A stretch of DNA of 64,000 nt. Origin: an uncultured Chloroflexia bacterium. Lineage in GTDB: Bacteria; Chloroflexota; Limnocylindria; Limnocylindrales; CSP1-4. Where the stretch lies: NCBI GenBank assembly GCA_963813335.1, contig CAWEYL010000006.1:1-64000 (forward strand), read 5' to 3'. Below the pieces are notes generated by a model, which saw only the letters and a program-made list of their open reading frames with translations, ran no database searches and was not told the DNA's origin. This document shows positions 11,577 to 37,195 of this stretch, one piece after another (the stretch's first letter is position 1; each line of letters begins with the position of its first letter). Both the position numbers and the translations under genes were made by a program.

Positions 11577-13928
<2,352 letters not shown>

Positions 13929-13962
13929 GGGCGTCACTCCTGGCATCGCGTGCGACCGGGCG

Positions 13963-15081
13963 CTAGGCCGACGGCACCACCGAGGCGCTCCCGGCATGGG
14001 GCACCGTGGCGTCGCGGAGCTCCATCGGAGCGAGCTCGCCGAGGCTCTCGGCAACCACGATCGCGTCGTCGCCCTCCTCGATGAGGAAGTCGACCGGCGG
14101 GTTGGTGAACGCCTGCCCGCCGCGGTTGACGGACAGGAGCGTCGCCCGGTGGTCCTCGCGGAGGCGGGCCGAGACCGCATCGACCGTCATGCCGCCGTAG
14201 TCCGACGGCAGCACGATCCGGTACAGCTCCGAGCCGATCCCACCGGACACGATGTCGGTGACCAGCGAGGTCAGCCCCGGATAGAGCGCCGACCGGGCAA
14301 GCAGGTGCGACGCCAGCTTGGAGCTCACGAGCAGCTCGTCGACCTCGGCACGGCGGAAGTGCATCTCGTGGCGAGGGTTGTTGACCTCCGAGACGACGCG
14401 GACGCCCGGGGCCGTGTGCTTGATCGCCATGATGGTCAGGATCGACTGCATGTCGGCCGCGTCGCTGCCGTCGATCGGGAACACGACGGCGACGGCGGCG
14501 TGCTCGAGGCCGGCACGGTCGAGATCCTCGGAGTTGGTGGCGTCGCCGCGGACGAAGTAGATCCCGGACCCGGCCGGGTTCTTGTCAGCATCGGTCAGGA
14601 CGACCACCTGCAGGTGATAGTCGTCGCCTTTCAGCTCCTCGATGAGGTCGCGCGCGGTCGAGTTCCAGCCGCACACGATGATGTGGTCCTTGAACCCGGA
14701 CGCACCCAAACCCTGGCCCTCCTTGAGCAGGAAATCGATGACCATCGCGACGAGGGCGCCGGTGATCATGCCGAGCATGGCGACCCCGAACAGGATCAGC
14801 AACCAGCCGACGATCCGGCCGGCCGGCGAGGTCACGTACGCCGAGTCGCCCTGGCCCAGGACGGTCGCGATCCCCCAGTTGAACGAGTCGAAGATGGACT
14901 CGAGGGTCCACGTCTTCTCGAACAGCGTGATGAAGATCGCGGCGACCAGCACGAACCCGACGATGCCCTCGGCGAGGGTCAGGAAGAAGCGCCGGTCGAG
15001 CGAACCCCCGACTCGCCGGATGTGCCACGCGACGCGCCGGATCAGCGGGCTGGCGAGCACGGGCATCGGGAGGCGAGCCAT
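13963..15081 (-). CDS. 2TM ion channel with RCK (TrkA-N/C) domains
   Basis: Two TM helices around pore segment WGIATVLGQGD; RCK motif HIIVCGWN, then GDAT. Confidence 0.8.
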   Translation of the reverse strand: MARLPMPVLASPLIRRVAWHIRRVGGSLDRRFFLTLAEGIVGFVLVAAIFITLFEKTWTLESIFDSFNWGIATVLGQGDSAYVTSPAGRIVGWLLILFGVAMLGMITGALVAMVIDFLLKEGQGLGASGFKDHIIVCGWNSTARDLIEELKGDDYHLQVVVLTDADKNPAGSGIYFVRGDATNSEDLDRAGLEHAAVAVVFPIDGSDAADMQSILTIMAIKHTAPGVRVVSEVNNPRHEMHFRRAEVDELLVSSKLASHLLARSALYPGLTSLVTDIVSGGIGSELYRIVLPSDYGGMTVDAVSARLREDHRATLLSVNRGGQAFTNPPVDFLIEEGDDAIVVAESLGELAPMELRDATVPHAGSASVVPSA

Positions 15082-18429: not shown

Positions 18430-18618
18430 TCAGGCCAGCGCGATCCGGATGCGCTTGTTGATGCGCCCCTTGGACTCGTAGCCGGTCACCCGGATCGCGC
18501 CCACCTCGCGGGTGTTGGCGACGTGGGTCCCGCCGTCGGCCTGGAGGTCCAGGCCGACGATCTCGATCGTGCGGATCTCCTCGATGCCTTCGGGGAGCAG
18601 GTTGACCTTGGTCCGGAT
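18430..18618 (-). pseudogene. alaX: Displaced native 3' end of the alanyl-tRNA editing gene (alaX)
   Basis: Translates IRTKVNLLPEGIEEIRTIEIVGLDLQADGGTHVANTREVGAIRVTGYESKGRINKRIRIALA* (62 aa), homologous to the C-terminus of ORF 28687-29436. Host-like GC3 codons and no start codon. Confidence 0.93.
18599..18618 (+). repeat. Left attachment site (direct repeat)
   Basis: AGGTTGACCTTGGTCCGGAT, 19/20 identical to 28865-28884; identical core GTCCGGAT at 18611-18618. Confidence 0.88.
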
Positions 18619-18750
18619 GATCCTGTCCCTTATCGCTTAGCAAACGCGGGATCACGCACGACCCCAGTTTGCTACGTTCACGGTGTTATGTCAGGGAATC
18701 CCGCACGACACAGCGGCAATGTCGGCTCGCCGTGACTCCGCCACTGTCGG

Positions 18751-19746
18751 TCAGGGGAGCTTCGCGATCGCAGCCTCGACAGCATCTGCCTCTCCCGCCA
18801 CGTGCACCACGAGAGCGTCACGTGACCAGAAGGCGACGGTGAACTCGTGACCTGACGCCCACTTGACAGTGCGTCCCGCAATCTCCCGCTGCTGCCACTT
18901 CCCCCGCGACGGCAGGTAGATGGCTGTACCAAACTCCGCGTCGAGGCGCTCCGCAGTGACCCCCGGCACGCCGTAGAGGCTGACGGTGAGCACGCCTGGT
19001 CCAGTTCCCCCCATCGCCGTCACGACTACGGCGTCGCGCGGTCGCGTGTCCAGCCGCTTGAGCGCCCTGTTGACGAGCGATGACCCCCAATGCGTCGCGC
19101 TAACCGAGGACACATCCATTGGTGGCGACGTGAGATCAGTCGGGATGAGCGCCTCAAGGTCCGGCGCCTCGTGCGGCATCTGCTCAGGCGTGGGCGGCCG
19201 TCCGACGGTGGCGCCGAGCTCTGCGGCGATCTCCGCCGTGACGCGTTCGATCTCCTCGAGCGACATCTCACGTGGTGGTGCGAACGAGGCGTTCGCTTGC
19301 CACGGGGTCGGTTCGTCGCTCTCGGGCTCGGGCGGTGGCTTCGGGCGTCCATCCGCTACCCAGTCTGCGTACAAGCGGTCCAGCGCTGGAGCGATCCGCG
19401 CGTAGCTGGCGGGATCGTCACCGACCGAATAGTCGGGTTCGTCGGCGAACACTCTGCCGTACTCGTCCACGTACGCGGAGTACCGCGCATCGCTGAACGC
19501 GCGCCCCTCAGCGTTCATGTCGGCTGGGAGGAGTTTCGTATCGATGTCGTCGGCGAGGTCTGACCCCGTCATCTCGCCTTGCTTCACGGCGACAACGTGA
19601 GACGCCGGAAACACCTTCGGGTTGTGGAGGTCGTGTCGGATGATCCATGCCAGGTAGAACCCGATGTGAGTGAACGCGTTCTCCGGTGGCTGACCCGCCG
19701 CAATGGCGCTGTCGAAGTGCCAGTCGAGTCTGTCGTATGTAGCCAT
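18751..19746 (-). CDS. Cargo protein: DUF7832-like N-terminal domain fused to a host lipoprotein-like C-terminal domain
   Basis: N-term YDRLDWH...THIGFYLAW...MNAEGRAF; Pro-rich linker; C-term DLEALIP...EIAGRTV...IAKLP resembles the 63517-64000 protein. Confidence 0.7.
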   Translation of the reverse strand: MATYDRLDWHFDSAIAAGQPPENAFTHIGFYLAWIIRHDLHNPKVFPASHVVAVKQGEMTGSDLADDIDTKLLPADMNAEGRAFSDARYSAYVDEYGRVFADEPDYSVGDDPASYARIAPALDRLYADWVADGRPKPPPEPESDEPTPWQANASFAPPREMSLEEIERVTAEIAAELGATVGRPPTPEQMPHEAPDLEALIPTDLTSPPMDVSSVSATHWGSSLVNRALKRLDTRPRDAVVVTAMGGTGPGVLTVSLYGVPGVTAERLDAEFGTAIYLPSRGKWQQREIAGRTVKWASGHEFTVAFWSRDALVVHVAGEADAVEAAIAKLP

Positions 19747-19849
19747 GGACGGGCGACCCCCTCGCGTGCGTTCCCAAGCTGGGCCCTTTGATATGCGTCA
19801 CGGAGAGCGTAGACCCACAGGCGGACGCCGCGAGCAGTGGTGGAGCCAC

Positions 19850-21019
19850 TCAGCGACGGAGAGCGTCGGGTCGCTCGAACGGTGAGCGGTAGGCGAGGCC
19901 CGTCGACAACTCGTGGCTGCTGTTGTGCAGCTTCACGAGGCGTTCGAGCGGGTTCCGGTAGTAGTGAACACGCGTCGGCCTGATCTTCGCCGGGTTGCGC
20001 CGAGGCGCTCCCCACTTCAACCGCGCATCACCGGGCGGCGTGTGGACGGTGTCGATGCGATCGAAGTCCTCGGGAGCGCCCGACAGGAACCAGAAGTAGG
20101 ACGACGCCTCCTGCGCCTCGCGGACTTCCGACATGACCACATCCCAGTCCCTGAGGATGAGGCGAGGAGGCCGTCGCGCCATCCTGCCGTAGACCTCGAC
20201 CTCGGCGGCGGCCATCGCGATGACGTACAGGAGCACCAGCTCGCTCGCGTAGTGGTCGAACATACCCATTCGATCAGGGGTGTTGCCGCCGAAGATCGCC
20301 TCGTAGCCACGCTTCGACGGATGCGCGTATCCGCTCAGGAACCCGTAGTGCACGTCCACCTGAATGTGCTTCCCGATCAGCAGTCCGTTCACGCGCAGCG
20401 CCTTCATGACCGCCGAGCGCCGGAACAGGTGGTTCCATGCCAGCGTCTGCTCGTCCGCCAGCTGCAGCATTAGCTTCTTCTCCCAGAACGGCGCAGCGAG
20501 CCGTCCGGCGTGCCACTTCGGTCCCAGGAATGGGTCGAACCGATCGACCTCGAAGTAGTAGTTCGAGATCGTCTGACCGCGGCCCTTCTTCGACTTGTCG
20601 CTGTGGAGTCCTCGGCGGACGACGTTCAGGTGGTGTTCGCGATCCCAGAACCAGCTATGGATGTCGGACCCGTCCTTCGCCTTCGCCGCTCGAAGGTCCG
20701 CATCCCACCTCGCGGCCTCCTTCTCCTTGGCATTCGAGTAGACGACGATGTAGCGGTTCGCGAGCAGGATCAGGCGATCCATCAGGTGGTGTTCGAGCGC
20801 GGCGCGGATGACGACGAGCGCGCTCGGGTAGTACCGGGCCTCGCTCAGAAGCAGCGCCGCGCGAAGATGGTGGGCGAGTTGCCCGGTGCGCTTCGCGTGC
20901 TCCATGTGCTGCATGTGCGCCACGCCGCCTGAACTGCCACGGCTCCCGATCGTTTCGAGGAGCCTCAGCATCCGCTCCGCGTGGGCAGGCAGCGTGCCGT
21001 GATCGTCCGTTGCGGTCAT
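19850..21019 (-). CDS. Cargo protein, DUF5677/HEPN-like (putative defence)
   Basis: Long ORF with IRAALEH and YGFLSGYAHPS motifs. Start uncertain (ORF open to 21133). Confidence 0.6.
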   Translation of the reverse strand: MTATDDHGTLPAHAERMLRLLETIGSRGSSGGVAHMQHMEHAKRTGQLAHHLRAALLLSEARYYPSALVVIRAALEHHLMDRLILLANRYIVVYSNAKEKEAARWDADLRAAKAKDGSDIHSWFWDREHHLNVVRRGLHSDKSKKGRGQTISNYYFEVDRFDPFLGPKWHAGRLAAPFWEKKLMLQLADEQTLAWNHLFRRSAVMKALRVNGLLIGKHIQVDVHYGFLSGYAHPSKRGYEAIFGGNTPDRMGMFDHYASELVLLYVIAMAAAEVEVYGRMARRPPRLILRDWDVVMSEVREAQEASSYFWFLSGAPEDFDRIDTVHTPPGDARLKWGAPRRNPAKIRPTRVHYYRNPLERLVKLHNSSHELSTGLAYRSPFERPDALRR

Positions 21020-21280
21020 CGGCACCGATGGTAGGCCGCCATCGGTTGCCGAGTTTCCGAAGATCGGTGGGACGGCCCTGGGACGAGCGCGGTCGCTGAG
21101 GCGGCTGGCAAGGACGACGAGCGACGATCGCACGCGATCCGACCACAGACAGGGGCGCGTCAGAGCGACCGCCTAATCCGCGTTGTTTTGGACAGGACAT
21201 GAAGGGCGCGCAGGCAGACGACAGCCCACGCGCCCCATTGCCCGATCCGTGCGCGCCCGGCTGACGCGCGGTGGGCGTGT

Positions 21281-22165
21281 CTAGTCGGTTGCCGTGGGCA
21301 ACTCGATGCCGAGTTCCTGCGCGAGGACCGGTGCCTCGCGCTGCCGCTGGTAGTCGGCCATCTTCACGACGTTGGAGGCGCGGATCTGCTCAACCGGCGT
21401 TCCGATCTTGTGGGCGACGCGAGACGCAGCGATGTCTCGCCGCGACAGTTCGAGTTCGTCCTGCGCCATCACCTCGATCTCGACCGCCTGCCGTCGATGA
21501 GGCACCGTCTTGTCGAGGTGGTGAGCGATCTCGCGATCGAGGTTGCCGTCGTCAGCGCCGACCTTCCTCGCTGCCGCGAGGTACTTCTGCGCGGCGTCGA
21601 GGTTGCCTGCCTGGAGCAGGCGCCGTGCCTCAGGGAGGAGGATGTTCCGCGCCTGCGCCCGCGATGGGTACTGCTCGGCGAGCGCGTTCGCCTCCATCTG
21701 CTCGCGGAGGCGGCGCATCTCGACCGCCGGATCGCCGACAGGATCGGACGCGCGCAGACGCGCTGCCTCCGTCCGCTGCCCGTGGTGCCACAGGAGCATC
21801 TCGCGCGAGTGACTCGTTTCGAGCGCGGCCAACTCCTTGAGGATCGCTGCGCCCTCGCGCTGGCGGTACTCGATGGGGTACCGATCTGACTGCGACTCGC
21901 TGTACCTCGCAGCGATCGCCGCGTACTGCTCGCGGAACGTCTTGCGCAGCGTTCGTGCCTTGTCTCTGCTCACCTTGACCTCCTGTTCTTGCTTGACTGA
22001 CTGGGCGATGGGTCCTCGGCGTGCGCGCAGCACGCCAATCTCCTGCTGGATCGCCTCGCGACGTTCAGGGGACGCTGGCGGCGTGCCCCACGCCCCGTCG
22101 CGTTCGAGCGCGAGCAGCAGCAACTTGTGGTCGATCGCTTGCAGGCGATCACGCGGCGTGGGCAT
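21281..22165 (-). CDS. Hypothetical alpha-helical/coiled-coil protein (294 aa)
   Basis: TGATG overlap with the upstream nuclease gene; E/R/A/Q-rich helical sequence. Confidence 0.75.
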   Translation of the reverse strand: MPTPRDRLQAIDHKLLLLALERDGAWGTPPASPERREAIQQEIGVLRARRGPIAQSVKQEQEVKVSRDKARTLRKTFREQYAAIAARYSESQSDRYPIEYRQREGAAILKELAALETSHSREMLLWHHGQRTEAARLRASDPVGDPAVEMRRLREQMEANALAEQYPSRAQARNILLPEARRLLQAGNLDAAQKYLAAARKVGADDGNLDREIAHHLDKTVPHRRQAVEIEVMAQDELELSRRDIAASRVAHKIGTPVEQIRASNVVKMADYQRQREAPVLAQELGIELPTATD

Positions 22166-22812
22166 CAGTACGGGTCCGACGATGCATCGCGCGAGGTGAC
22201 GAGGACCCCTGACCGCGACAGGTAGCGCGACTGACCCGACCCGATCCGCCAGTAGGTCGCGAGCATGAGCGCGACGATCAGGTCATCGTGGTCGCGACCG
22301 TCGCGCAGCGCCTCGTACGTGTCCGCGCCGCTCTGCGAGAACTTGGCGCGGAACGAGGCGTGCTGCTTCGCGATTTCCTTCCGCAGCGGAGTGTCGCGGA
22401 CGGCGATCTGACCGCTGCTCAACTTCGCCTCGTACTTGCCGACGAGGTTCCGCTTCGCGAGGTGCCCGCCGTTGTCGAGGATGCCCGCGGTCAGGATGAT
22501 CGGCTGCGCCCACAGCCTCAGACGACCGTCCCGTTTGGCCTGGCGGAACATGTCCTCGTAGACGGCACCGACCCCTGTCGCGTCGAACAGGAGGCGCGCG
22601 TCTTCGAGGCCTTCCCTCCCCATGACCGCGAGGGTGTCCGTCACGACCGACGTGTGCGGCGTGCCCAGTGCCCACTGCTGGGCGTAGGCGACGTCCCACC
22701 GCCATCGGTCGTGGTCCTGTGGGGCGTCCCTCGCGAGCATGATCCGCTCGACGATCACGAGCGCCGCCGGGTCCTGACGCTGACCCGGATCGAGGGCAAC
22801 AACAAGGTTCAT
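22165..22812 (-). CDS. Terminase large subunit nuclease (RNase H-like) domain as a stand-alone gene
   Basis: VVALDPGQRQDPAALVIV, FDATGVG, HDDLIVALMLA (acidic triad); own RBS GAGGAGGT and ATGA overlap. Confidence 0.82.
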   Translation of the reverse strand: MNLVVALDPGQRQDPAALVIVERIMLARDAPQDHDRWRWDVAYAQQWALGTPHTSVVTDTLAVMGREGLEDARLLFDATGVGAVYEDMFRQAKRDGRLRLWAQPIILTAGILDNGGHLAKRNLVGKYEAKLSSGQIAVRDTPLRKEIAKQHASFRAKFSQSGADTYEALRDGRDHDDLIVALMLATYWRIGSGQSRYLSRSGVLVTSRDASSDPY

Positions 22813-23570
22813 CTGGCCACCTCCTCAAAGAGGCCCGGCATGCCCTCGCCTTGCGCGAGCATCCGAGCGATGTCGTCTGGGCGGAAGATCGCGTCCGACG
22901 TGGACACGAACGCGCACTCGTACTCCTGCTGGTAGACCCACGACCCCAGCGACCGACGCTCCTCCTCGAGGAAGTCCGCGGAGATGCGCGGCACAGCGGA
23001 CGCCGGAACCTCGTACCGCTCCCACCCAGGACCGCCGTTCGCCCACGCGTCCCACCACCAACCGCGCTGACCGAACGGCGTGCTCAGGGCGATCAGGCGC
23101 CCGCCCGTGACCGCGAGCATCGGACGCACGGCGGCGTACATGTCGTCATCGATCCGCGATGCCTCGTCGAGGATCAGGAGGTCTGCCGAGAACCCGCGCA
23201 CCGTGCTCTCGGACGCCGGCAGCGAGATCACGCGCGACCCGTTCTCCGCTGTGAGGGTCGTCTGGTTGTCGCCTGTCTTGACGAGCGCGAGTTCCTTCCA
23301 CAGGTGGCGGACCTTGCCTGCGACCTCGCTCGACTGGCGCAGGCCCGCGGACACGATCAGGACGACGGAGTCAGGGACGCTGCTCGCCTGATGGACAGCG
23401 GCGACCGCTGCCGTCGTGCTCTTGCCGCTCTGGCGGCAGCAGTTCCACAACTGGCGCGGATGCCGCGACCGGAGCGCGCCGCGCTGCCAGTCGTCCGGCG
23501 TCATGCCGATCGACGAGCACAACTCGACTGGATCGAGCGCGCGGAGCAGATCGCGCGCGAGGGAGGTCAT
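22809..23570 (-). CDS. Terminase large subunit ATPase domain (Terminase_6-like) as a stand-alone gene
   Basis: Q-motif PDDWQ, Walker A CCRQSGKST, Walker B LLILDEASR, motif III ALSTP, and QEYECAF. Confidence 0.9.
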   Translation of the reverse strand: MTSLARDLLRALDPVELCSSIGMTPDDWQRGALRSRHPRQLWNCCRQSGKSTTAAVAAVHQASSVPDSVVLIVSAGLRQSSEVAGKVRHLWKELALVKTGDNQTTLTAENGSRVISLPASESTVRGFSADLLILDEASRIDDDMYAAVRPMLAVTGGRLIALSTPFGQRGWWWDAWANGGPGWERYEVPASAVPRISADFLEEERRSLGSWVYQQEYECAFVSTSDAIFRPDDIARMLAQGEGMPGLFEEVAR

Positions 23571-24067
23571 GCCTCGATCCTCCGCAGCGCGTTCGTCACG
23601 TCCGCGAGCGCGTCAGGGTGCCGCTGCAACGCCGCGAGGATCGTCATGCGCGTCCGCACCCACTCGTCGGACGTGGACAGGTTGAGCACCTGCACCGTCG
23701 ACTGGTTCTCGGGGCGCAGCTCGCCGCTCAGGCGTGCCAGCAACTCGATCGAGGCGCGCAGTTCGCGCGAGGCGCCCAGCAGCATCGACTCACGCTTCTC
23801 GTCGTGCGTCCGGTTGACGAGCGCCTCCAACTTCGAGACGAGGCCTTCGACGCGGTCGCGCGCGGTCGTCTCGATCTGGACGGCGGTCCCCTGCTCCGCG
23901 CGAAGCGCCGTCAGCGCCATCGACATGTGCCGGTCGCGATGCCGACGCAGCGCGTCGCGATCCATCGAGAACTGACGCCCAACGGCGGACAGCGAGCGTC
24001 CGGACACGATCAGCGCCTCGATCGCTGCCTTGTCCTCTGATGTGCAGGTGCGGCAGTACCCAGCCAT
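23567..24067 (-). CDS. Putative terminase small subunit (CxxC/HxxxH-flanked HTH plus coiled coil)
   Basis: MAGYCRTC...SLSAVGRQFSMDRDALRRHRDRH, then a helical region; directly upstream of and coupled (ATGA) to the TerL ATPase. Confidence 0.7.
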   Translation of the reverse strand: MAGYCRTCTSEDKAAIEALIVSGRSLSAVGRQFSMDRDALRRHRDRHMSMALTALRAEQGTAVQIETTARDRVEGLVSKLEALVNRTHDEKRESMLLGASRELRASIELLARLSGELRPENQSTVQVLNLSTSDEWVRTRMTILAALQRHPDALADVTNALRRIEA

Positions 24068-24525
24068 CAGCGCTGCTCCTGCCGCGATGCCTGCGCGAGT
24101 GCGCGCTCTCGCTGGCCGACGGGCTCCGGGGCGCCGGTCGCCAGATGTAGAGGGTGGGGGGTGGCCACACGTCGCACGGTCGGAACGCGGTCGCGGTTGA
24201 CGTAATCCGAGGTGGAGCGACCTGCGATCGACCGCGACCGCGAACCTGGACCTGCCGACCGATGCCTGACGTAACGGTGGGCAACCTGCGCCTGGCATCG
24301 ATCGCGGTCGGACCCGCTAGGAACGGATGCCCGTCCAACGTCCACGGCGGACGTGCCGTGTCTCATGAGCACACTCCTCATCGCTTTCACCACTCGATTG
24401 CACGCGTCGATCGCTCGCACGCACTCAGCGCTACGCGCCTCTGAGTGCGAGCGAAATCGCCTTTCGCTTGCACCGTCGCGTTCACCGGTGCAAGCGACCG
24501 ACTGCAAGCGACGAACCGCCTTCAC
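24067..24525 (-). CDS. Hypothetical ORF (possibly spurious; overlaps the repeat cluster)
   Basis: Start and stop overlap both neighbours (GTGA, TGATG), but no recognisable motifs. Confidence 0.35.
   Translation of the reverse strand: MKAVRRLQSVACTGERDGASERRFRSHSEARSAECVRAIDACNRVVKAMRSVLMRHGTSAVDVGRASVPSGSDRDRCQAQVAHRYVRHRSAGPGSRSRSIAGRSTSDYVNRDRVPTVRRVATPHPLHLATGAPEPVGQRERALAQASRQEQR
24411..24512. repeat. Inverted/direct repeat cluster, candidate replication origin or packaging site
   Basis: IR TCGCTCGCAC/GTGCGAGCGA (24411-20/24445-54); IR TCGCTTGCACCG/CGGTGCAAGCGA (24464-75/24486-97); DR TGCAAGCGAC (24489-98, 24503-12). Confidence 0.55.
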
Positions 24526-26321
24526 GCCGCACCGCCATCGAGTCGGAACACGCGCTTGTGCGACTTCCCCTGCGCGTCTGACTCGATCGCTTGGAGGTCG
24601 TGCAGGTCGGCGCGGATGGTGTTCGGCGACGCCGCGATGCCTTCTCGCGCCAGCGCGCTCCGCACCTCCTCGACAGACAGCGCGGCATCCGTGAGCAGCG
24701 CAGTGATCGCCTCGCGTCGCTTCCGCTGGTCGCCGCGCAGCGCTTGCGCTCGACTGACGCGCATGGCGATCACGCCCTCGCCTGACCCGCGATCCGCGTA
24801 GCGCTGCGTGTCGCGGTCGTAGGACAGGAGGAAGTAGGTCGGTTCGACCACTCGCCCCTTGACGTTGACCACGCGGTCGTCCGCGTCGCCGTTGGGGTCA
24901 GGCGCGAACTCGGCAAGGATGTCCACGGACGACGTGAGCGCGGTCGATCCTCGCGCCCTCGCGTCGTCCTTGCGGAAGTGGTGGACGACGATCACGGCGG
25001 CGCCAGCACGCGCGACGGTCGAGCGGATCAGCGCGATCGATCCCGTGACTTCGGCGGCGTCGTTCTCGTTCTCGATCCCTGCCCATTGAGCGAAGGTGTC
25101 GATGACGACGACCTCCGCTCTGCCTGCCTTCACCTCTCGCGAGGCGAGCACGAGCGCGTCCGTGAACGTCAGCGACGCTGCGACCGCCTCGGCGTACGCA
25201 AGCGTCCGTGCGCGCACGTCGTAGCGGTCGAGTTTCAGCGTGATCGGAGGTCCCCACTCCTCGGTGAGGATCAGCACCGACGCCTTCCTGATCGCGCGCC
25301 CGAGGAACATGTCGCCGCGCGTCAGGTGCCCCAACAGGTCGGACAGGAAGGACGACTTGCCTGCCTTCTCAGGACCCGACAGCAGCGTGATCCCTGATCG
25401 GTACAGGAGCGGATGCCAGATCCAGTCGAGGTTGGTTGGCATGATCGCCCCCAACTCCGACCGCGTAAGGAAGACGTGCGCCTCGTCAGGCGACGGCAGA
25501 TCGCGTCCACCCGCGAGGTGCCAGGCACGCCAATCCTTGCCGCCGCCCGTCAGAGGGTCGTAGTCAGGCGGTCGGATCGTCGCGACGTCCAACCCTGCGG
25601 CAACGATGCGGGCAGATAGTTCGCTTGAACCGTCGCTGCCTTCGGCGTCCGCATCGAAGGCGACAACGATCTTGCCCACGCCTCGCCGCCGCAGAGCGTC
25701 GATCTGAGAATGCGTCAGCGCGGTTGCTGCGCCTTTGGTGATGGCGAACGCGTCGATGCCGCGCGAGCGCAGGACGATGCAGTCGGATTCGCCTTCGGTA
25801 AGCACGATCGACGAGGGGTACTCGTCGAGCAGCGGCCAGATCGGAGGCGCCTTCGCCCCCTTCGGTGCCCATCCGTGTTCGCCGGTCAGCGGATCGCGCG
25901 TGCGGACGACGCTCGTGCCGCTGAACGTGAAGGCAACCTTGCCCTCGCGCTCCTCGATCGGCAGCGTGCCGACGAACCCGCGATCCACGCCGCAGTAGTC
26001 GGCGTACCAATCGAGCGGCGCCTGTCGCGTCCGTCGAGGCAGCGCGGTCAGGGGCGACACCTCGCTGCTGGTGGCGATGGAGACGTGACCGTTGCGCCGA
26101 CTGCCATCGACCGCTGCGACCACGTCGGCGTATCCGCATCCTGCGAAGCAGCGGACGAGGGCATCGCGCCCCTTCCGCTCCGTGACGTGCAGCGACGGTC
26201 GCCCGTCGTCGTGCGATGGGCAGCGCGCCATGATCGACCCGTCGCCCTGGTCTTCGATCGCGTCGAGGTGCGCGCGCCAGTAGCGCAGGTCGCGGACGCC
26301 GCGCGTGTTGACGGTCACCAT
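24522..26321 (-). CDS. Primase-helicase (Zn-binding + TOPRIM + AAA_25/RecA-like + C-terminal wHTH)
   Basis: CPSHDDGRPSL...CFAGC; LTEGESD...FDADAEG; Walker A SGPEKAGKS; Walker B VVVIDT; HHFRK...RGSTAL. Confidence 0.88.
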   Translation of the reverse strand: MVTVNTRGVRDLRYWRAHLDAIEDQGDGSIMARCPSHDDGRPSLHVTERKGRDALVRCFAGCGYADVVAAVDGSRRNGHVSIATSSEVSPLTALPRRTRQAPLDWYADYCGVDRGFVGTLPIEEREGKVAFTFSGTSVVRTRDPLTGEHGWAPKGAKAPPIWPLLDEYPSSIVLTEGESDCIVLRSRGIDAFAITKGAATALTHSQIDALRRRGVGKIVVAFDADAEGSDGSSELSARIVAAGLDVATIRPPDYDPLTGGGKDWRAWHLAGGRDLPSPDEAHVFLTRSELGAIMPTNLDWIWHPLLYRSGITLLSGPEKAGKSSFLSDLLGHLTRGDMFLGRAIRKASVLILTEEWGPPITLKLDRYDVRARTLAYAEAVAASLTFTDALVLASREVKAGRAEVVVIDTFAQWAGIENENDAAEVTGSIALIRSTVARAGAAVIVVHHFRKDDARARGSTALTSSVDILAEFAPDPNGDADDRVVNVKGRVVEPTYFLLSYDRDTQRYADRGSGEGVIAMRVSRAQALRGDQRKRREAITALLTDAALSVEEVRSALAREGIAASPNTIRADLHDLQAIESDAQGKSHKRVFRLDGGAA

Positions 26322-26512
26322 CGTCCACCGCCTGCCGTTGACACGACCCCGCGTGCTTCGCCGACGATCGATGGGCGCGGTGGGTTCAAGTGACGTTGAC
26401 GCCGCGCATCCCTTCCCCACCTGAGGTGACGGCATGGACAGGATCGACCACGTGACCCGCGAGACAACGGACGTGTGCTTGGAACTCGTGCAACAAGCGC
26501 TCGCGGAGGCAT
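26315..26512 (-). CDS. Hypothetical small ORF
   Basis: Fills the gap between coupled genes (TAG-ATG junction); no motifs. Confidence 0.3.
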   Translation of the reverse strand: MPPRALVARVPSTRPLSRGSRGRSCPCRHLRWGRDARRQRHLNPPRPSIVGEARGVVSTAGGGRW

Positions 26513-26809
26513 CTACGCGTCCTCCTCGATCGCGAACGGCACGTACCCGCACAAGCACCCGTATCGCTCTTCCAGTCGGTGTGCGAGCAGCGTTCGGATC
26601 ACCGTTGCCGCCTTCGCACGAGGACTCATCTCCTCGTCCGTGAACTGGGCGTCAAGCGAGGCGTAGAAGAGGCGGATCGCCGCGCCGCCAGCAGGCGACC
26701 TGAACTCCTCCCATCGCGCCGCGCCGTGGGCGCAGGCGAGCGTGATCGACCGCAATCCACGGTTATCTGGGCGGACAAGCAACTCCGCCCAACGCTCCTC
26801 GTCGGTCAT
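26513..26809 (-). CDS. Hypothetical protein (98 aa)
   Basis: ATGA overlap with the upstream gene; Cys/His motifs CAHG and H...YGCLC. Confidence 0.6.
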   Translation of the reverse strand: MTDEERWAELLVRPDNRGLRSITLACAHGAARWEEFRSPAGGAAIRLFYASLDAQFTDEEMSPRAKAATVIRTLLAHRLEERYGCLCGYVPFAIEEDA

Positions 26810-27102
26810 CGCGGCACGACTCGCAGCGCACGCCGATCGCGCTCGCGCTTCTCGACCATGCGGAGGAAGTGCATCCGCTGGGCGCGACGCGCGGCGAGGG
26901 TGCGTGCCGCCTCGCCGAGGTCAGGTGAGATCGTCACGTCGCACCCGAGCGAGCAGACGTGCCGCGTGCCGAACGTCGCGAGGAACGCCTCACGTGCCTG
27001 CTCGGTCATCGAGGCAGGGTCAGCGGCGCGGTTGATCGCCTTCTGCAGACCGCCGAGGCGACCAGCGCGAGCGCGCTTCTCGTGGAGCGTCAGTCCGTCC
27101 AC
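26806..27102 (-). CDS. Hypothetical protein (98 aa), basic
   Basis: RARAGRLGG...DPASMTEQAREAFLATF...ARRAQRMHFLRM; resembles small proteins of high-GC integrative elements; coupled to neighbours. Confidence 0.65.
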   Translation of the reverse strand: MDGLTLHEKRARAGRLGGLQKAINRAADPASMTEQAREAFLATFGTRHVCSLGCDVTISPDLGEAARTLAARRAQRMHFLRMVEKRERDRRALRVVPR

Positions 27103-27326
27103 GACAACGCCGCCTTGATCTTCGCGAGGGAGGTCGGACCCGGACGGATGACGCCGATCTCGTAGGCGGCGATCGACGTCTGTGGGACCTTCGCGATCGT
27201 CGCGAGGTCCATCTGCGACATGCCGAGCGTGATGCGTCGCTCGGTCATCTCACGTGCGAATGGAGAACGCGCAGCGAGCACGTCCTGTGGGATCAGCGCA
27301 GGTCCACGGGACCCACCGCGAGGCAT
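27090..27326 (-). CDS. XRE/Cro-like HTH protein
   Basis: RRITLGMSQMDLATIAKVPQTSIAAYEIGVIRP. Confidence 0.8.
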   Translation of the reverse strand: MPRGGSRGPALIPQDVLAARSPFAREMTERRITLGMSQMDLATIAKVPQTSIAAYEIGVIRPGPTSLAKIKAALSWTD

Positions 27327-27358
27327 AAGAAAACCCGTCTCCTTTCAAGGAGACGGGT
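27327..27358 (-). terminator. Intrinsic terminator-like hairpin downstream of the integrase
   Basis: Perfect 11-bp stem ACCCGTCTCCT/AGGAGACGGGT (27333-43/27348-58), 4-nt loop, followed by TTTCTT on the minus strand. Confidence 0.65.
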
Positions 27359-27611
27359 GCTGGTCGTCCGTTGCCTGCCGTGGCAGGTCGTCCCGTTCTT
27401 ACAACACGCTTCGCTGGCGAACCCGTCGGTCGATATTCGGTTCCTGCCCCCGATACTTGGCGACTTGGCGATGGTTGTCAACTCGACCAATGATCGACGT
27501 AGAACGTCGGTTTCGACGGTCGCTGACACGGCGGAGGGGCGTCGCTGGGTATCGACGCCCCTCGGGATCGTTCCTCCTGTCAGCGACCGTTCTGCGCGGT
27601 CGCGCGACCCG

Positions 27612-28568
27612 TCACACGAGGTCGCCAGGCGCACCTTGGGCGAAGTAGGCGGCACGCGCGCGCTCGTCCGCGGCGGAGGCACCGTAGCGCTGGAGCATCT
27701 CCGGCGATGACCACCCCATCAGGCGCATGAGCGCGTTCTCCTGCATGCCACCCTTGAGGTTGAGGTGCGCCGCCGTGTGGCGGAACTGGTGCGGATGCAC
27801 GTGCGCCAATCCGGCAGCGCGCGTCCGCTCCACCAACAGGTTGTTGAGCGCCGGAGGTTCCATCTGAGCGCCCATCTGCGACACCCACAGGAACGGCGAC
27901 GCGGCGTACTTGTGCGTTCGGCGGAGGCGGAGGTATCGCTGCAACGCCTGCGCCGACTTCGCACCGAACGGCACCACGCGTGCCTTCTTGCCCTTCGCGT
28001 TCTCGTGGCGGACTTGGACGAGGTGCTGATCGAGCAGCACATCGTCCATATGCAGGCCCATGAGTTCAGCGCGCCGCATCCCCGTGTCGAGCAGCAGGCG
28101 CAGGATCGCCGTGTCGCGACGATCGGCGAACGTCTTGCCTGAGCAGGCGTCGAGCAGCGCGCGCAGGTCCTCGATCGAGAGCACAGGCACGGGTTCCGTC
28201 GGTTTGGTCGGCGCCTGCATGCCGCGCATCGGCGTCTTCTCGACGATCTCCTCGTTGACCGCGAAGTTGAAGAACGCTCGAAGGCCCGCGTACCGCGTGT
28301 TTGCCGTGCCGGCGGAGTGCTTGCCCAACTGATCCGTCATGAACGCCTGGAGCATCGCGCGAGTGATCTCCGGCGTGCTGCGCGGGTACCCACGATCACC
28401 TAGGAAGCGATCCAGCGTCGCGAGCGTGAGGCGGTACGACTCGACCGTGCTGGGCGAACTGTTCCTCGCGCGCAGCGTGTCCGCGAACCACTGGAAGTCG
28501 GACATGAGCTGCGACGGCGCGGCGCTCGGAAGGGCGATCAGGTTGTTTGCAGCGGACGAGCGGGGCAT
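27612..28568 (-). CDS. int: Tyrosine recombinase/integrase
   Basis: DTGMRRAEL (R), AKGKK (K), HQFRH (HxxR), LMGWSS (W), LQRY (Y); N-terminal SAM-like domain; RBS AAGGAG. Confidence 0.95.
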   Translation of the reverse strand: MPRSSAANNLIALPSAAPSQLMSDFQWFADTLRARNSSPSTVESYRLTLATLDRFLGDRGYPRSTPEITRAMLQAFMTDQLGKHSAGTANTRYAGLRAFFNFAVNEEIVEKTPMRGMQAPTKPTEPVPVLSIEDLRALLDACSGKTFADRRDTAILRLLLDTGMRRAELMGLHMDDVLLDQHLVQVRHENAKGKKARVVPFGAKSAQALQRYLRLRRTHKYAASPFLWVSQMGAQMEPPALNNLLVERTRAAGLAHVHPHQFRHTAAHLNLKGGMQENALMRLMGWSSPEMLQRYGASAADERARAAYFAQGAPGDLV

Positions 28569-28686
28569 GACGGTGACTCCTTGCGACCGATCTTACGTCG
28601 GCGGCTGCGCATCCTGAGTTCCGTCTCCGAATAATGTCAACCAACATCGCTGTGGCAACGGATTAGGTCAACCAGAAGGTTGACGA

Positions 28687-29436
28687 TTATTCGTCCACCA
28701 GTGCGATCCTGATCCGCTTGTTGATCCGCCCCTTCGACTCGTACCCCTGAACACGAATCTGACCAACTTCGCGCGTGTTCGAGACGTGCGTCCCACCGTC
28801 GGCCTGCAAGTCAAGCCCGACGATTTCTATCGTCCGAATCTGCTCGATGTCTTCAGGCGGCAGAAGGTTGACCTTTGTCCGGATCAGGTCCGGGATCGCG
28901 AACGCCTCGGCGCGCGGGAGGACGTTGACCTTGACGTCGCGCTGGGCGGCCAGCTCGCGGTTGACGGTCGCCTCGATCTCGTCGACGAGGTCGCCCGACA
29001 TCCGCTCGAACTCGAAGTCCATCCGCGCGGTCCCGGGCTCCATGTTGCCGCCCGTGACATGGGCGCCGTAGTCGCGCCACACGACCCCGCAGAGGGCGTG
29101 CAGCGCGGTATGGGTCCGCATGAGGGTGAGACGGCGCGCCCAGTCGAGGTCGACCTCGACGAGGTCGCCCACCGCGGGCGGGCCATCGTCGTCGGGCTCG
29201 AGCTCGTGGACGATCTCGCCATCGGCCTTGCGCGCGGAGCGGACCGTCCACGACCGCCCGTCCGCGGTCCGCAGGATGAGACCGCGGTCGGCCGGTTGCC
29301 CGCCGCCGCCCGGATAGAAGACCGTCCGGTCGAGGACGACCAGAACGGCGTCGCCCGCCTCGATCGCGACGACGCGCGCCGCGACGCGCTGCAGGTAGGC
29401 GTCCGAATAGGCGAGCTGCTCGCCGCTGGGTGTCAT
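28687..29436 (-). CDS. alaX: Alanyl-tRNA editing protein (AlaX-M type), chimeric: 3' end supplied by the element
   Basis: TVFYPGGGGQPAD, MRTHTALH, DLQADGGTH. The segment from the att core to the stop (28687-28884) is element-derived. Confidence 0.92.
   Translation of the reverse strand: MTPSGEQLAYSDAYLQRVAARVVAIEAGDAVLVVLDRTVFYPGGGGQPADRGLILRTADGRSWTVRSARKADGEIVHELEPDDDGPPAVGDLVEVDLDWARRLTLMRTHTALHALCGVVWRDYGAHVTGGNMEPGTARMDFEFERMSGDLVDEIEATVNRELAAQRDVKVNVLPRAEAFAIPDLIRTKVNLLPPEDIEQIRTIEIVGLDLQADGGTHVSNTREVGQIRVQGYESKGRINKRIRIALVDE
28865..28884 (+). repeat. Right attachment site (direct repeat)
   Basis: AGGTTGACCTTTGTCCGGAT; core GTCCGGAT at 28877-28884. Confidence 0.88.
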
Positions 29437-29938: not shown

Positions 29939-30200
29939 GGGTGAAGAGGCACCTTTCGTGGGCTGGGCGGGTCCATCGGGTCGTGGTCCCTCATGAATCT
30001 ATCCCGCGGGCGGCGTCCTGTCGCGCCGGCGACGGGCGTGGCGGCGCGGGCCCGACCACCTCACGTAGTACTTCTGGGCTATCCACCCCGGACCATCGGG
30101 CCGGTTGTGGCTCCCCGACCACGCGGCCTAGTCTCGCCATCCACCTCCCGGACCCGGTGGGTGGCAGACGACACCAAACAGCTGGATCGGAGCTTTCCCG

Positions 30201-30302
30201 ATGATCAAGGAATACGTTGGGCGGGCCTGGAAGCTCGCTGTGACCGTCGGACCGCTCGTCGCGGTCGCCCTCGCCCTCGCCGCTGGTACCAAGTGGCACT
30301 AG
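30201..30302 (+). CDS. Small hydrophobic peptide (33 aa), not in the ORF track
   Basis: MIKEYVGRAWKLAVTVGPLVAVALALAAGTKWH*, GGAG RBS at 30189-30192, downstream terminator. Confidence 0.6.
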   Translation: MIKEYVGRAWKLAVTVGPLVAVALALAAGTKWH

Positions 30303-30381
30303 AGGCGAACTGAACCTCGCTGTCTCATTTCGCTGCTTCGCCAGGAGTCCATTCCGAAACGAAGCGATAGGCGACCCTCGG

Positions 30382-30410
30382 AACCCGGAGACCCTCCCTC
30401 CGGGTTTCGT
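30382..30410 (+). terminator. Intrinsic terminator
   Basis: Stem AACCCGGAG/CTCCGGGTT (30382-90/30398-406), 7-nt loop, T-rich tail. Confidence 0.6.
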
Positions 30411-30430
30411 GGTGTCTGGGGTCGGATCCC

Positions 30431-33400: not shown

Positions 33401-33650
33401 GGACCAGCGGCCCGTACGGCTCGTCGGTGCCGGCGGGCATCGCACCACCGCGGAGGACGGTCATCGGCTCGCTCAACGCGGCGATCCGGCCGGTCGCCTC
33501 GTCGAAGAAGCGGCTGATGCCCACACCCGCGGGGCCGCTGACCAGCATCGCCCGGGCGCGGCCATGGGCCGCATCGTCGAGCACGGCCGCGAGCCGCGCG
33601 AAGGCGTCCTCGCGTCCGACGTACCGCGCGCTCACGTATCGGCCGGGCAT
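30431..33650 (-). CDS. Large ATP-binding LuxR-family (LAL/MalT-like) regulator, apparent frameshift near 31490
   Basis: YVGRE, SGPAGVGISR (degenerate Walker A), LILEDLHRAD, TPR-like helices; C-terminal LSGREREVLALVAQGRTNREIGERLFIS in ORF 30431-31432. Confidence 0.88.
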
Positions 33651-37124: not shown

Positions 37125-37195
37125 GGGAGCCAGGACTCGAACCTGGAACCAGCGGGATATAAGCCCGCCGCTCTGACCGATTGAGCTACTCCCCC
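37119..37195 (-). tRNA. tRNA-Ile(UAU)
   Basis: GGGGGAG-TA-GCTC-AATCGGTCA-GAGC-G-GCGGG-CTTATAT-CCCGC-TGGTT-CCAGG-TTCGAGT-CCTGG-CTCCCCT-A-CCA; anticodon TAT at 37161-37159. Confidence 0.9.

Follow-up and report, generated by a model that had tools for sequence, protein, structure and literature searches.

An Att-Bounded Element With TerS-Like and TerL Genes and No Recognisable Virion Genes in a Chloroflexia Genome, Probably a Phage Satellite of Undescribed Kind

Introduction

Can a small mobile element which carries the genes of a packaging motor and none for a shell be a phage parasite, and does it belong to any described kind? This question is raised by an island located within the window considered here, i.e., the whole stretch of 64,000 nucleotides of a Chloroflexia genome that was analysed. 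The strategies known for satellites are redirection of the helper terminase (P4, cos-type PICIs, and Rpp), supply of the small terminase subunit only (SaPIs), and building of the whole head (cf-PICIs). A sequence-only reading of the window proposed a distinct satellite type, either bringing a complete motor to helper procapsids or using terminase parts for interference with helper packaging. Here, we addressed if the island is a discrete element, if its genes and relatives conform to any described family, and how the satellite interpretation compares with its alternatives.

Results

Boundaries of the Element and Its Target Gene

The mobile island, with all its genes on the minus strand, spans 10,266 bp according to the spacing of the core repeats (Table 1) and is inserted at the 3′ end of an alaX-type gene. 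Its ends are marked by a 166-nt direct repeat with 79% identity between the copies (18435-18600 versus 28698-28863), terminated by a 20-nt core, AGGTTGACCTT[G/T]GTCCGGAT. The interrupted gene (28687-29436) is an alaX-type editing gene (NCBIfam AlaXM, 5.3e-77) whose 3′ end constitutes the repeat, and in its hybrid form it is full length, covering positions 2-233 of the 234 in the AlaXM profile. When compared with 11 congeners at the 3′ terminus of alaX, the left (attL) copy is 81.5-90.7% identical and the right (attR) one only 76.6-81.8%; since the left copy is nearer than the right to uninterrupted congener alaX in 10 of 11 loci, it represents the displaced native end. All 11 congener loci examined are empty, having no element genes within 1.5 kb of alaX. 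Core spacing and these empty sites bear out the att-bounded element proposed initially and reveal a discrete insertion which restores its own target gene.

Gene Order and Replication Module

ORF coordinates together with Pfam and PHROG matches reproduced the gene order read from the letters, namely integrase, HTH regulator, small ORFs, primase-helicase, repeats, TerS-like gene, TerL ATPase, TerL nuclease, helical protein, and cargo, as well as its placement on one strand with overlapping junctions (13, 4, 4, 4, and 1 nt). Relative to the nearest copy, dN/dS falls between 0.03 and 0.15 in all eight core genes, indicating purifying selection. Own integration and replication functions are represented by the integrase, the primase-helicase, and iterons. 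Homologues of the HTH_3 regulator (53-55%) are found in two related elements, L026 and L027, the first of which also contains, at the equivalent position, a 60% identical homologue of the conserved small ORF. The second small ORF, without family matches in Pfam or PHROGs, occupies a replaceable slot: unrelated sequence substitutes for the segment 26371-26814 in the copy residing in genome G117, and one metagenome contig has the slot replaced as well, with a joint from 26370 to 26824. For the primase-helicase, dN/dS is 0.090 over 599 codons, and the true start probably lies downstream of the annotated one, the nearest copy being a 599-aa ORF. Five of the six matches to TCGCTYGCA in the window are concentrated in the iteron cluster behind this gene, and lineage-specific repeats occupy the equivalent position after the replicase gene in L026, L027, and L041; the cluster is a candidate for the replication origin or pac site.

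Table 1. Features of the element and its flanks in the coordinates of the window.
Feature	Position	Strand	Evidence
attL side, displaced native alaX 3′ end plus core 18599-18618	18435-18618	-	Direct-repeat search, congener comparison
Element proper, 10,266 bp	18619-28884	-	Core spacing, empty congener sites, G117 copy
Cargo gene 1, DUF7832-domain protein, 331 aa	18751-19746	-	Pfam PF25191, 3.3e-22
Cargo gene 2, about 390-427 aa	19850-21133	-	ORF; family searches
Conserved all-helical protein, 294 aa, conserved core in the last ~230 aa	21281-22165	-	AlphaFold2; dN/dS 0.149
TerL nuclease-domain protein, 215 aa	22165-22812	-	phrog_27743, 4.6e-20
TerL ATPase-domain protein, 253 aa	22809-23570	-	phrog_7579, 1.7e-59; Terminase_6N, 6.2e-12
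TerS-like DNA-recognition protein (predicted), 166 aa, invariant CxxC...HxxxH, then helical regions	23567-24067	-	hhalign, position; dN/dS 0.032
Cluster of iterons and palindromes immediately behind the primase-helicase stop (candidate origin or pac site)	24411-24511		TCGCTYGCA matches, inverted repeats
Primase-helicase (zinc-finger region, Toprim, AAA_25)	24522-26558	-	AAA_25, 1.6e-24; Toprim_2, 3.5e-9; PHROG primase/helicase families
Small ORF, 98 aa, replaceable slot	26513-26809	-	Segment swapped in relatives
Small conserved ORF, 98 aa	26806-27102	-	dN/dS 0.092
HTH_3 (Xre-type) regulator, 78 aa	27090-27326	-	Pfam HTH_3, 5.6e-6
Tyrosine integrase (int), 318 aa	27612-28568	-	Pfam Phage_integrase, 5e-30; phrog_1, 1.1e-51; dN/dS 0.085
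attR side, element-borne replacement alaX 3′ end plus core 28865-28884	28687-28884	-	Direct-repeat search

Cargo Genes and Absence of Virion Genes

Cargo varies among relatives, and both cargo genes are missing from the G117 copy; since the latter is nearly identical otherwise, the DUF7832 and 427-aa proteins do not belong to the core. The DUF7832 protein has no match in PADLOC or NCBIfam, and the product of the second gene has none in Pfam, PHROGs, PADLOC, or NCBIfam, its nearest ESM Atlas clusters being bacterial hypothetical proteins, with DUF5677 in 18% of the members of one of them. As had been noted from the sequence, no gene for portal, capsid, protease, tail, or lysis proteins can be recognised: these families are absent from the Pfam matches of 11 of 11 ORFs and the PHROG matches of 10 of 11 (DUF7832 protein excepted), and 12 reference head proteins gave no match to the element. 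In its small size and its lack of recognisable virion genes, the mobile unit agrees with the general description of a satellite.

Terminase Genes

Alignment with relatives places the start of the TerS-like gene at the Met codon at 24067, giving 166 aa, not 243. The protein belongs to a family of 10,454 representative clusters. In hhalign comparisons it reached a probability of 100% against two phage proteins, one from Thermus phage Riverbug (1.2e-42) and one from Meiothermus phage MMP17 (3e-39), each encoded by the gene that immediately precedes TerL. TerS PHROGs match, weakly, five of 59 family members and the “DNA binding protein” annotation eight of 59; the best Foldseek hits, phage protein 2ao9 (E 1.2) and Sf6 TerS (E 3.3), are not significant, and in Riverbug the TerS annotation sits on a different gene. 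Designation of this protein as TerS-like is a prediction made from gene position and homology to unstudied phage genes.

The large subunit is divided between two genes. The ATPase part (dN/dS 0.056) matches T4 gp17 and, at 5e-10, 4zni in PDB, and G49-K50, D135-E136, and S163-T164-P165 are invariant across 26 sequences, so that Walker A, Walker B, and coupling motifs of a TerL ATPase are all in place. The nuclease part (dN/dS 0.060) matches, as a profile at about 1e-6, TerL nuclease domains of known structure (5m1f, 5m1q, and 5tge) and retains three acidic motifs, LDPG, D77, and HDD, which we take to be the catalytic acidic residues; profile and motifs together identify an RNase-H-like nuclease of TerL type. 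The split itself, in correction of the initial reading, is nothing special to the element, since many related true phages possess it: numerous related split-TerL viral contigs carry portal, scaffold, and capsid genes.

Conserved Helical Protein

The gene following the TerL nuclease starts with a 1-nt overlap over its stop codon and has 34 detected homologues, with no known family emerging from Pfam, PHROGs, or the homologue search. Its AlphaFold2 model (pLDDT 88.8) consists of nine helices and finds no significant counterpart in PDB or BFVD (best E 0.13-0.16); the all-helical product thus has neither the HK97 nor the portal fold, either of which was named at the outset as fatal for the satellite interpretation. 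The protein occurs in the syntenic elements L025, L026, L027, L041, and L043, and many homologues are encoded on contigs the longest of which measure 9.3-11.2 kb. A search of the viral contig collection with the profile of this protein gave no match. That this conserved, translationally coupled protein might act as a capsid-size or portal-adaptor factor is the weakest of our suggestions and amounts to a guess.

Relatives and Their Distribution

The second circumstance named as fatal, that homologous loci would normally be full prophages, did not materialise, because close syntenic relatives are att-bounded elements of 9.6-10.8 kb with the same gene order. The G117 copy, also in alaX, comprises 10,780 bp with different cargo and matches the element in two blocks with identities of 94% and 90%, and another alaX copy (G111) shows 35-70% amino-acid identity. 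Syntenic relatives within this size range and with their own att repeats were found in other genomes at two other integration sites, one of them tRNA-Pro; in genome G032, a 10,616-bp element is bounded by 78-nt repeats, and a 9,563-bp one between exact 51-nt tRNA-Pro repeats contains primase-helicase, TerS-like, split TerL, and integrase genes. Since these relatives are not full prophages and neither of the two folds applies to the helical protein, the element belongs to a distinct, conserved, capsid-less family equipped with TerS-like and TerL genes. Its distribution is patchy, with TerL_A present in 16 of 301 genomes of the order and the helical protein in five of 401 genomes of the class. 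Among viral contigs, three with terminal overlaps (11,694, 12,458, and 15,124 bp) carry primase and split TerL and no structural PHROGs among the ORFs tested; the 15-kb circle encodes ParA and has no detected integrase, so some members may be plasmid-like instead of phage-dependent.

Discussion

Comparison With Known Systems

The claim that the element fits no known satellite family was upheld, the families being compared by their published descriptions as far as the cited texts go. Classical PICIs resemble it in a size of about 10-15 kb, att bounds, a terminal tyrosine integrase, regulators, a primase/replicase gene followed immediately by an iteron origin, a gene for a small terminase (predicted in the element), and cargo that varies and is located at the end opposite the integrase. 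According to these descriptions, PICIs depend on the TerL of the helper (PMC10690885; PMC10085698), whereas the element possesses TerL ATPase and nuclease genes itself, has all genes on one strand, resides in a Chloroflexia host, and shows no detected homologue of PICI capsid-remodelling or interference genes; despite functional analogues of int, regulator, pri-rep with ori, and, by prediction, terS, assignment to this class was rejected on account of the element's own TerL. Carriage of TerL together with a predicted TerS, and hence presumably self-specified packaging, links the element with cf-PICIs, for which terL is given as the marker separating them from PICIs (PMC10085698). As described, however, cf-PICIs also encode major capsid protein, protease, portal, head-tail adaptor and connector, and HNH (PMC10690885; PMC10085698); this class was rejected too, the element having only terS-like and terL genes, no recognisable cf-PICI head genes, and a helical protein of neither HK97 nor portal type.

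With P4, the satellite of P2, the element has in common, by available accounts, the nature of an integrative replicon of ~11 kb with its own primase-helicase and about one-third of the helper genome size. The small all-helical Sid protein of P4 resizes the helper capsid; the helical protein described here is comparable to it by description, with no Sid similarity found. P4 has no terminase and uses the P2 enzyme on a cos site, unlike the element with its own terminase, and a P4-like identity was rejected for this reason and for the lack of sid, psu, delta, alpA, and epsilon among Pfam/PHROG matches of the 11 ORFs. An actinomycete-type integrative conjugative element (AICE) or mobilisable island was rejected as well, no FtsK/TraB-like or relaxase family being present among Pfam matches of these ORFs. 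The closest TerL proteins of isolated phages belong to Thermus phage Riverbug and Meiothermus phages MMP7/MMP17, with which the ATPase part shares 52% and 44.6% identity, and a zinc/HTH gene directly upstream of TerL is common to the element, Riverbug, and MMP17; yet all three have complete phage genomes of 33-34 kb, in which TerL is one fused protein of ~415 aa and which include portal, head, and tail genes, none of them recognisable in the element.

Satellite Interpretation and Its Alternatives

Own genes for integration, replication, and packaging, the absence of shell genes, and conservation as a family make a new phage parasite the most likely identity of the element. We consider it rather probable that the element represents an undescribed kind of phage satellite, integrative and self-replicating, which brings a whole terminase to helper procapsids. 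From the initial proposal, the distinct conserved capsid-less family stood up to analysis, while helper dependence and packaging did not gain support and are something we infer: the host genome (81% complete) gave no match for portal PF04860, phrog_64, and phrog_12 or capsid PF05065, four other carrier genomes gave none for portal phrog_64 and phrog_12, and neither an excised circle junction nor a packaged form of this element was seen, the matching sequence runs containing fragments of relatives only.

That no helper was found in five genomes would also suit an integrative or plasmid-like element which uses terminase parts for defence, by poisoning or diverting the packaging of an invader, or for processing its own concatemers, and which is transferred by another route. 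Such use would be in line with ParA on the related 15-kb circle, with variable cargo as in defence islands, with the loss of two of the three acidic nuclease motifs in relatives of the L028, L029, L031, and L033 type, and with interference of satellites in helper packaging, exemplified in the cited account by PLE (PMC11417361). We nevertheless hold it unlikely, as none of the seven element proteins tested matched PADLOC defence families, Pfam matches of the 11 ORFs include no relaxase, coupling protein, or FtsK/TraB-like translocase, a complete co-translated set of TerS-like and TerL genes with intact ATPase and nuclease motifs suits packaging and exceeds the needs of interference, and the narrow size range would be left unexplained.

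A quick tree of TerL_A revealed polyphyly of the capsid-less state, which could equally reflect repeated decay of small capsid-forming elements. The element may also be viewed as a relic of a prophage or of a small capsid-forming satellite after deletion of head genes, its terminase having no present function. More distant TerL relatives (35-54% identity) do include true phages; within the same bacterial family, TerL is accompanied by portal and major head protein genes in L035 and L036, by head protease in L031, and by a virion structural protein in L033. Decayed copies also exist, represented by a truncated helical gene between alaX fragments (L042), a 3.4-kb partial duplicate (G144), and a third copy of att accompanied by part of a gene (L027). 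A published precedent is NitKor-E1 of Nitrosopumilus koreensis AR1 (Krupovic et al., 2019), a single archaeal case in which, besides a tyrosine integrase, TerS and TerL lie next to each other and are the sole genes of head-tailed viruses, and which the cited text files as a cryptic integrated element, enigmatic and “likely a relic,” its authors stating that terminase was previously unseen in non-viral elements (PMC6563490). The likeness to NitKor-E1, as described there, concerns gene content; here, a bacterial family is observed with conserved synteny, size, replication module, and purifying selection. Decay is hard to reconcile with dN/dS of 0.03-0.15 for the TerS-like protein, both TerL halves, and the helical protein, with retained catalytic motifs, with recurrence of gene order and 9.6-10.8-kb size in relatives of 35-70% amino-acid divergence at three att sites with intact repeats, and with the element's own replicase, iterons, and circular-assembling relatives, so that we regard a relic as improbable. 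Selection on all eight core genes, intact motifs, and recurrent att-bounded units also led to rejection of the defective prophage category. Hardly credible is a minimal virus with unrecognisable shell proteins, for example, the helical or 427-aa protein as a novel capsid component: although no known family could be assigned to three proteins large enough for such a role, the helical one is all-alpha, the 427-aa and DUF7832 proteins are not core, ~0.9 kb of core coding capacity is left for head, portal, tail, and lysis, and terminases act with portal-bearing HK97-type heads.

Proposed Life Cycle and Implications

Under the satellite interpretation, infection by a helper phage, no resident one having been found, would trigger excision of the element and its replication from its own origin; the TerS-like protein would recognise a site on the element DNA, the element's own TerL ATPase and nuclease proteins would dock on the helper portal, and the DNA would be cut and pumped into helper-made procapsids, to which helper tails would then be added. 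The nearest phages measure 32.9-34.1 kb, and the element with its about 10-11 kb corresponds to roughly one-third of such a genome; a normal head of a 33-34-kb phage might thus accommodate approximately three tandem copies, or a reduced head one copy. Evenly balanced in our estimation is the broader proposition of a widespread satellite class, composed of integrative or episomal replicons with a whole terminase and no shell genes, which would seize helper procapsids at the portal with the helical protein as adaptor or head-size factor and whose terminase module would have undergone exchange or re-acquisition on several occasions, perhaps in step with helpers.

If the satellite interpretation is true, a complete motor without a head fills a gap between the known satellite strategies, and a foreign TerL can dock on a helper portal. 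Satellite-finding tools, which model no such arrangement, would gain a new marker set, and “orphan” terminase genes in genomes and MAGs, now scored as prophage remnants or viral contigs, would have to be reread. The range of satellites would come to include Chloroflexia, a group for which the literature searched describes none. The compact two-piece TerL enzymes that occur naturally in this family could serve the biochemistry of packaging motors.

Integration Site and Boundaries

G+C content varies within 64-78% along the window, and the host assembly comprises 2.54 Mb in 7 contigs with 81% completeness. The direct repeat of 166 nt (79% identity; 18435-18600 and 28698-28863), which ends with a 20-nt core whose copies lie 10,266 bp apart and differ by one mismatch, represents the 3′ end of an alaX-type alanyl-tRNA editing gene. 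In other species of the same genus, alaX is uninterrupted in 11/11 loci, with no element genes at distances up to 1.5 kb from it, while the left repeat copy is nearer than the right one to the native alaX ends in 10 of these 11 (81.5-90.7% versus 76.6-81.8%). The element is therefore delimited as 18619-28884, and the att-bounded unit of 10,266 bp proposed from the sequence alone holds. The element supplies a substitute 3′ end and alaX stays whole, the native end being stranded at 18435-18618.

Among the sequencing runs listed, 24 share words with the element (best value, 0.16 of words), and no RNA run with such words is found among them. Four contig sets gave only fragments of relatives with 85-99% identity to the element; the start of one contig falls exactly at 18611. 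One low-depth joint (18588 to 28856) resembling an empty site and the lack of the circle junction (attP) in the same contig sets are too weak to count either way. The sole tRNA gene of the window (37119-37195) encodes tRNA-Ile with anticodon TAT, an isoacceptor uncommon in bacteria, and a protein of 1,219 aa with AAA_16 and TPR domains is encoded two genes away from the element (29991-33650) at local G+C of 72-78%.

Gene Content

All eleven ORFs of the element occupy the minus strand in the order initially described (Table).

Table. Features of the element and its integration site.
Feature	Position	Strand	Basis or remark
alaX-type alanyl-tRNA editing gene, 249 aa	28687-29436	minus	NCBIfam AlaXM 5.3e-77, profile positions 2-233 of 234
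Tyrosine integrase	27612-28568	minus	Pfam and PHROG matches
Xre-type HTH protein	27090-27326	minus	Pfam and PHROG searches
98-aa ORF (orf98a)	26806-27102	minus	No family
98-aa ORF (orf98b)	26513-26809	minus	No family
Primase-helicase	24522-26558	minus	Toprim_2, AAA_25
454-bp spacer	24068-24521		Repeats and palindromes within
166-aa zinc/HTH protein (TerS-like)	23567-24067	minus	Alignment of relatives
TerL ATPase	22809-23570	minus	phrog_7579 1.7e-59; PDB 4zni 5e-10
TerL nuclease	22165-22812	minus	phrog_27743 4.6e-20; profile versus 5m1f, 5m1q, 5tge ~1e-6
294-aa helical protein	21281-22165	minus	Homologues; model of nine helices
427-aa protein	19850-21133	minus	No family; no Pfam, PHROG, PADLOC or NCBIfam match
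DUF7832 protein	18751-19746	minus	Pfam

Overlaps of 4, 4 and 1 nt join the last four core genes. TerL ATPase retains three motifs that show no variation in 26 sequences (G49-K50, D135-E136, S163-T164-P165), and three acidic motifs are retained in TerL nuclease. Five of the six window matches to TCGCTYGCA (2.79 expected by chance over the whole 64 kb) are gathered amid palindromes at 24411-24511, immediately past the stop of primase-helicase, and other repeats occupy the same position in related elements, a pattern resembling that of a replicase-specific origin.

The TerS-like frame of 243 aa suggested earlier starts too early, as relatives align from Met at 24067. The resulting protein shares invariant CxxC...HxxxH with its relatives and obtains no name from Pfam or PHROGs; its profile recovers 10,454 representative clusters, the majority 155-170 aa long. 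By hhalign (probability 100%) it corresponds to a gene of no name that immediately precedes TerL in both Thermus phage Riverbug (1.2e-42) and Meiothermus phage MMP17 (3e-39). It is therefore the protein that conservedly accompanies this TerL clade in true phages and, by inference, a putative small terminase subunit. Matches to TerS PHROGs are weak and confined to few members of the family, the fold search with its model gave no significant match, and the TerS label in the deposited annotation of Riverbug belongs to another gene.

Absence of Shell Genes

Neither Pfam (all 11 ORFs) nor PHROGs (10 of them, all but the DUF7832 protein) assigned any element ORF to structural families, no ORF is similar to any of twelve reference portal, head and protease proteins of related phages, and intergenic gaps span only 103-454 bp, so that no gene is hidden there; the absence of portal, capsid and protease genes noticed in the sequence-only reading is thereby confirmed. 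The helical protein is the only core protein of no family large enough to matter. Its model (pLDDT 88.8) consists of nine helices and has nothing significant in PDB (best E 0.16) or in BFVD (best E 0.13), so that the HK97 or portal fold considered previously for this product did not emerge. By hhalign, its profile shows no similarity to the gene following TerL in Riverbug or to a small ORF of L052, a viral contig with split TerL; the profile has no match in the viral contig collection and at least four loci each in genome and in metagenome contigs, as scanned with one peptide pattern. The element's proteins of no family had no match in PADLOC or NCBIfam. Largest among the unknowns are the 427-aa and DUF7832 proteins; both are missing from the near-identical copy in genome G117 and so are cargo.

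Family of Related Elements

ORFs were taken from homology and strand-specific ORF lists, GC3-based calling having picked the wrong strand (68% GC). The copy in G117, a genome of the same genus, is also inserted in alaX, measures 10,780 bp and matches the window element with DNA identity of 94% and 90% in two blocks, carrying different cargo (DUF5131) and a different gene in the orf98b slot. Between these two copies, dN/dS is 0.03-0.15 in all eight core genes. In another genus, genome G111 holds the same gene order at alaX, where its contig ends, with identities of 70% for integrase, 55% for HTH, 60% for orf98a, 36% for primase-helicase, 36% for TerS-like protein, 42% for TerL ATPase and 35% for helical protein. 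Genome G032 contains an element of 10,616 bp with the same gene order between 78-nt repeats (contig 8) and one of 9,563 bp between exact 51-nt tRNA-Pro repeats (contig 2), composed of primase-helicase, TerS-like, TerL ATPase, TerL nuclease, two small genes and integrase. Syntenic loci, which the sequence-only reading had proposed to look for, are thus available as repeat-bounded units of 9,563-10,780 bp in G117 and G032. Cargo is unlike in every element (VanZ, DUF2321, methylases, proteasome-like subunit). Of 401 genomes sampled across the class, 5 encode the helical protein, and these 5 belong to one family; TerL ATPase is encoded in 16 of 301 sampled across the order. This is a family of elements, not an accident.

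Three viral contigs with split TerL overlap at their ends and hence have circular assemblies: L052 measures 11,694 bp and carries integrase and primase, L066 measures 12,458 bp and carries primase, and L102 measures 15,124 bp and carries ParA and primase. No structural PHROGs were detected among the 10, 3 and 10 ORFs tested, respectively. At 362-1042 and 13606-14475, L102 encodes a ParA-like partition protein and an additional TerL-like ORF (phrog_13702), with no integrase detected, and by this gene set looks like a plasmid-style version of the element type.

The orf98b slot (26371-26814) and its counterpart in the otherwise 90-94% identical G117 copy (L025, 13246-13695) are unrelated in sequence, and the same swap is found in one metagenome contig (joint 26370 to 26824, 459 other letters); the slot may be a specificity or immunity cassette.

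Split TerL and Its Relatives

Stand-alone TerL ATPase is very common, being represented by 5,614 clusters at E <= 1e-20, the best 120 of which are all 187-308 aa long (lengths to 443 were searched). Relatives in the viral contig collection number 242; among the best 80, TerL is encoded by two ORFs in 59, by one long ORF in 20 and is cut in 1. Split TerL as a mark of capsid-less elements was rejected: when 148 ORFs following 42 split loci were scanned with PHROGs, portals (phrog_64, 18 members; phrog_104, 12), scaffold and head proteins were recovered, and the first count, associating split TerL with lack of portal and fused TerL with its presence, was an artefact of few reference proteins. The splitting of TerL thus characterizes a large clade of phages rather than satellites, and is not peculiar to the element. 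Portals were recovered by phmmer chaining in only 5/42 split loci. TerL nuclease had no tblastn match in phage records.

Farther TerL relatives from the same bacterial family adjoin portal and major head protein (L035, L036), head protease (L031) or virion protein (L033). In the quick TerL-ATPase tree, capsid-less loci need at least three origins, Thermus and Meiothermus phages are nearest to the window's clade, and the G111 and G032 elements fall in another TerL clade, though sharing the helical protein with the window element; modules have been exchanged. Shorter TerL nucleases (162-243 aa) of L028 (9224-9955), L029 (9198-9860), L031 (10332-10820) and L033 (2731-3279) have lost the first and third acidic motifs, keeping the central Asp alone, and so may be nuclease-dead. 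L031 (9043-10332) and L032 (9047-10354) have the zinc/HTH N-terminus of the TerS-like protein in frame with TerL ATPase, a possible TerS-TerL fusion; in L031 a head-protease-like gene of 558 aa follows, so small relatives bearing capsid genes exist in the same bacterial family.

Comparison With Known Elements

According to their published descriptions, PICIs have TerS at most, while cf-PICIs combine terL with capsid, protease, portal and connectors (PMC10690885, PMC10085698); in VEIMEs, 8% of which encode terminases (PMC12822802), and in tycheposons either TerS or a capsid gene is present, EPIPs combine TerS with parts of head and tail, and MiniFlayer and MulchRoom possess full head modules and no primase. 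As far as these descriptions go, the element is unlike all of them. The sole published parallel found is the archaeal NitKor-E1, likewise having integrase, TerS and TerL; its authors state that terminase was not previously identified in non-viral elements and regard it as likely a relic (PMC6563490). No description of capsid-less satellites that form a family and encode both TerS and TerL was found in the literature, where supplementary gene tables (VEIME, SatelliteFinder, tycheposon) could hold cases.

Proposed Mode of Transfer

The data show a discrete gene-restoring insertion whose genes for integration, replication and packaging enzymes are under selection, whose size and gene order recur, and which has no shell genes. 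Its best reading, which we consider rather probable, is a new variant of phage satellite. The sequence-only reading is borne out in its observation and, as to interpretation, in part. The use of terminase parts for defence or another non-packaging purpose is rather unlikely, the motifs of both TerL proteins being retained; a relic, as supposed for NitKor-E1, is quite improbable beside dN/dS values of this order, and a cryptic virus is hardly credible.

As a satellite, the element would depend on a helper phage for transfer, its own recognition protein and two-piece TerL loading its DNA into helper procapsids. Genomes of the nearest phages measure 32.9-34.1 kb against 9.6-10.8 kb of the elements (circular relatives to 11.6-12.5 kb), which therefore make about one-third of a head-full, the same proportion as P4 to P2; this would be compatible with a head filled by three copies in tandem or with a smaller head taking a single one. 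The helical protein, whose translation is coupled to that of the nuclease, may serve head resizing or act as a motor-to-portal adaptor. PF04860 and PF05065 are absent from the incomplete host assembly, phrog_64 and phrog_12 from five carrier genomes, all incomplete, and no resident helper phage was found by portal and capsid families in these incomplete genomes.

Decayed and Duplicated Copies

Decayed copies of the element type are present as well. G032, with its two distinct terminase-bearing elements, has a third att copy and a 30-codon fragment of the helical gene on contig 8 (L027, 16151-19665) and more broken copies on contig 20 (L039), which suggests that integration took place in tandem or more than once, with later decay. 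In the metagenome contig L042 (107-6403), intact alaX runs directly into a helical gene cut down to residues 120-294, and another 3′ fragment of alaX lies 5.4 kb off; the locus represents a decayed family member in the att site used by the window element. In genome G144, a 3.4-kb block exists in two copies of 99% identity and inverted orientation (L029, 8966-12353; L030, 7700-11090), ~1 Mb apart on one contig; it comprises the TerS-like gene, the pair of TerL genes and a portion of the gene for primase.
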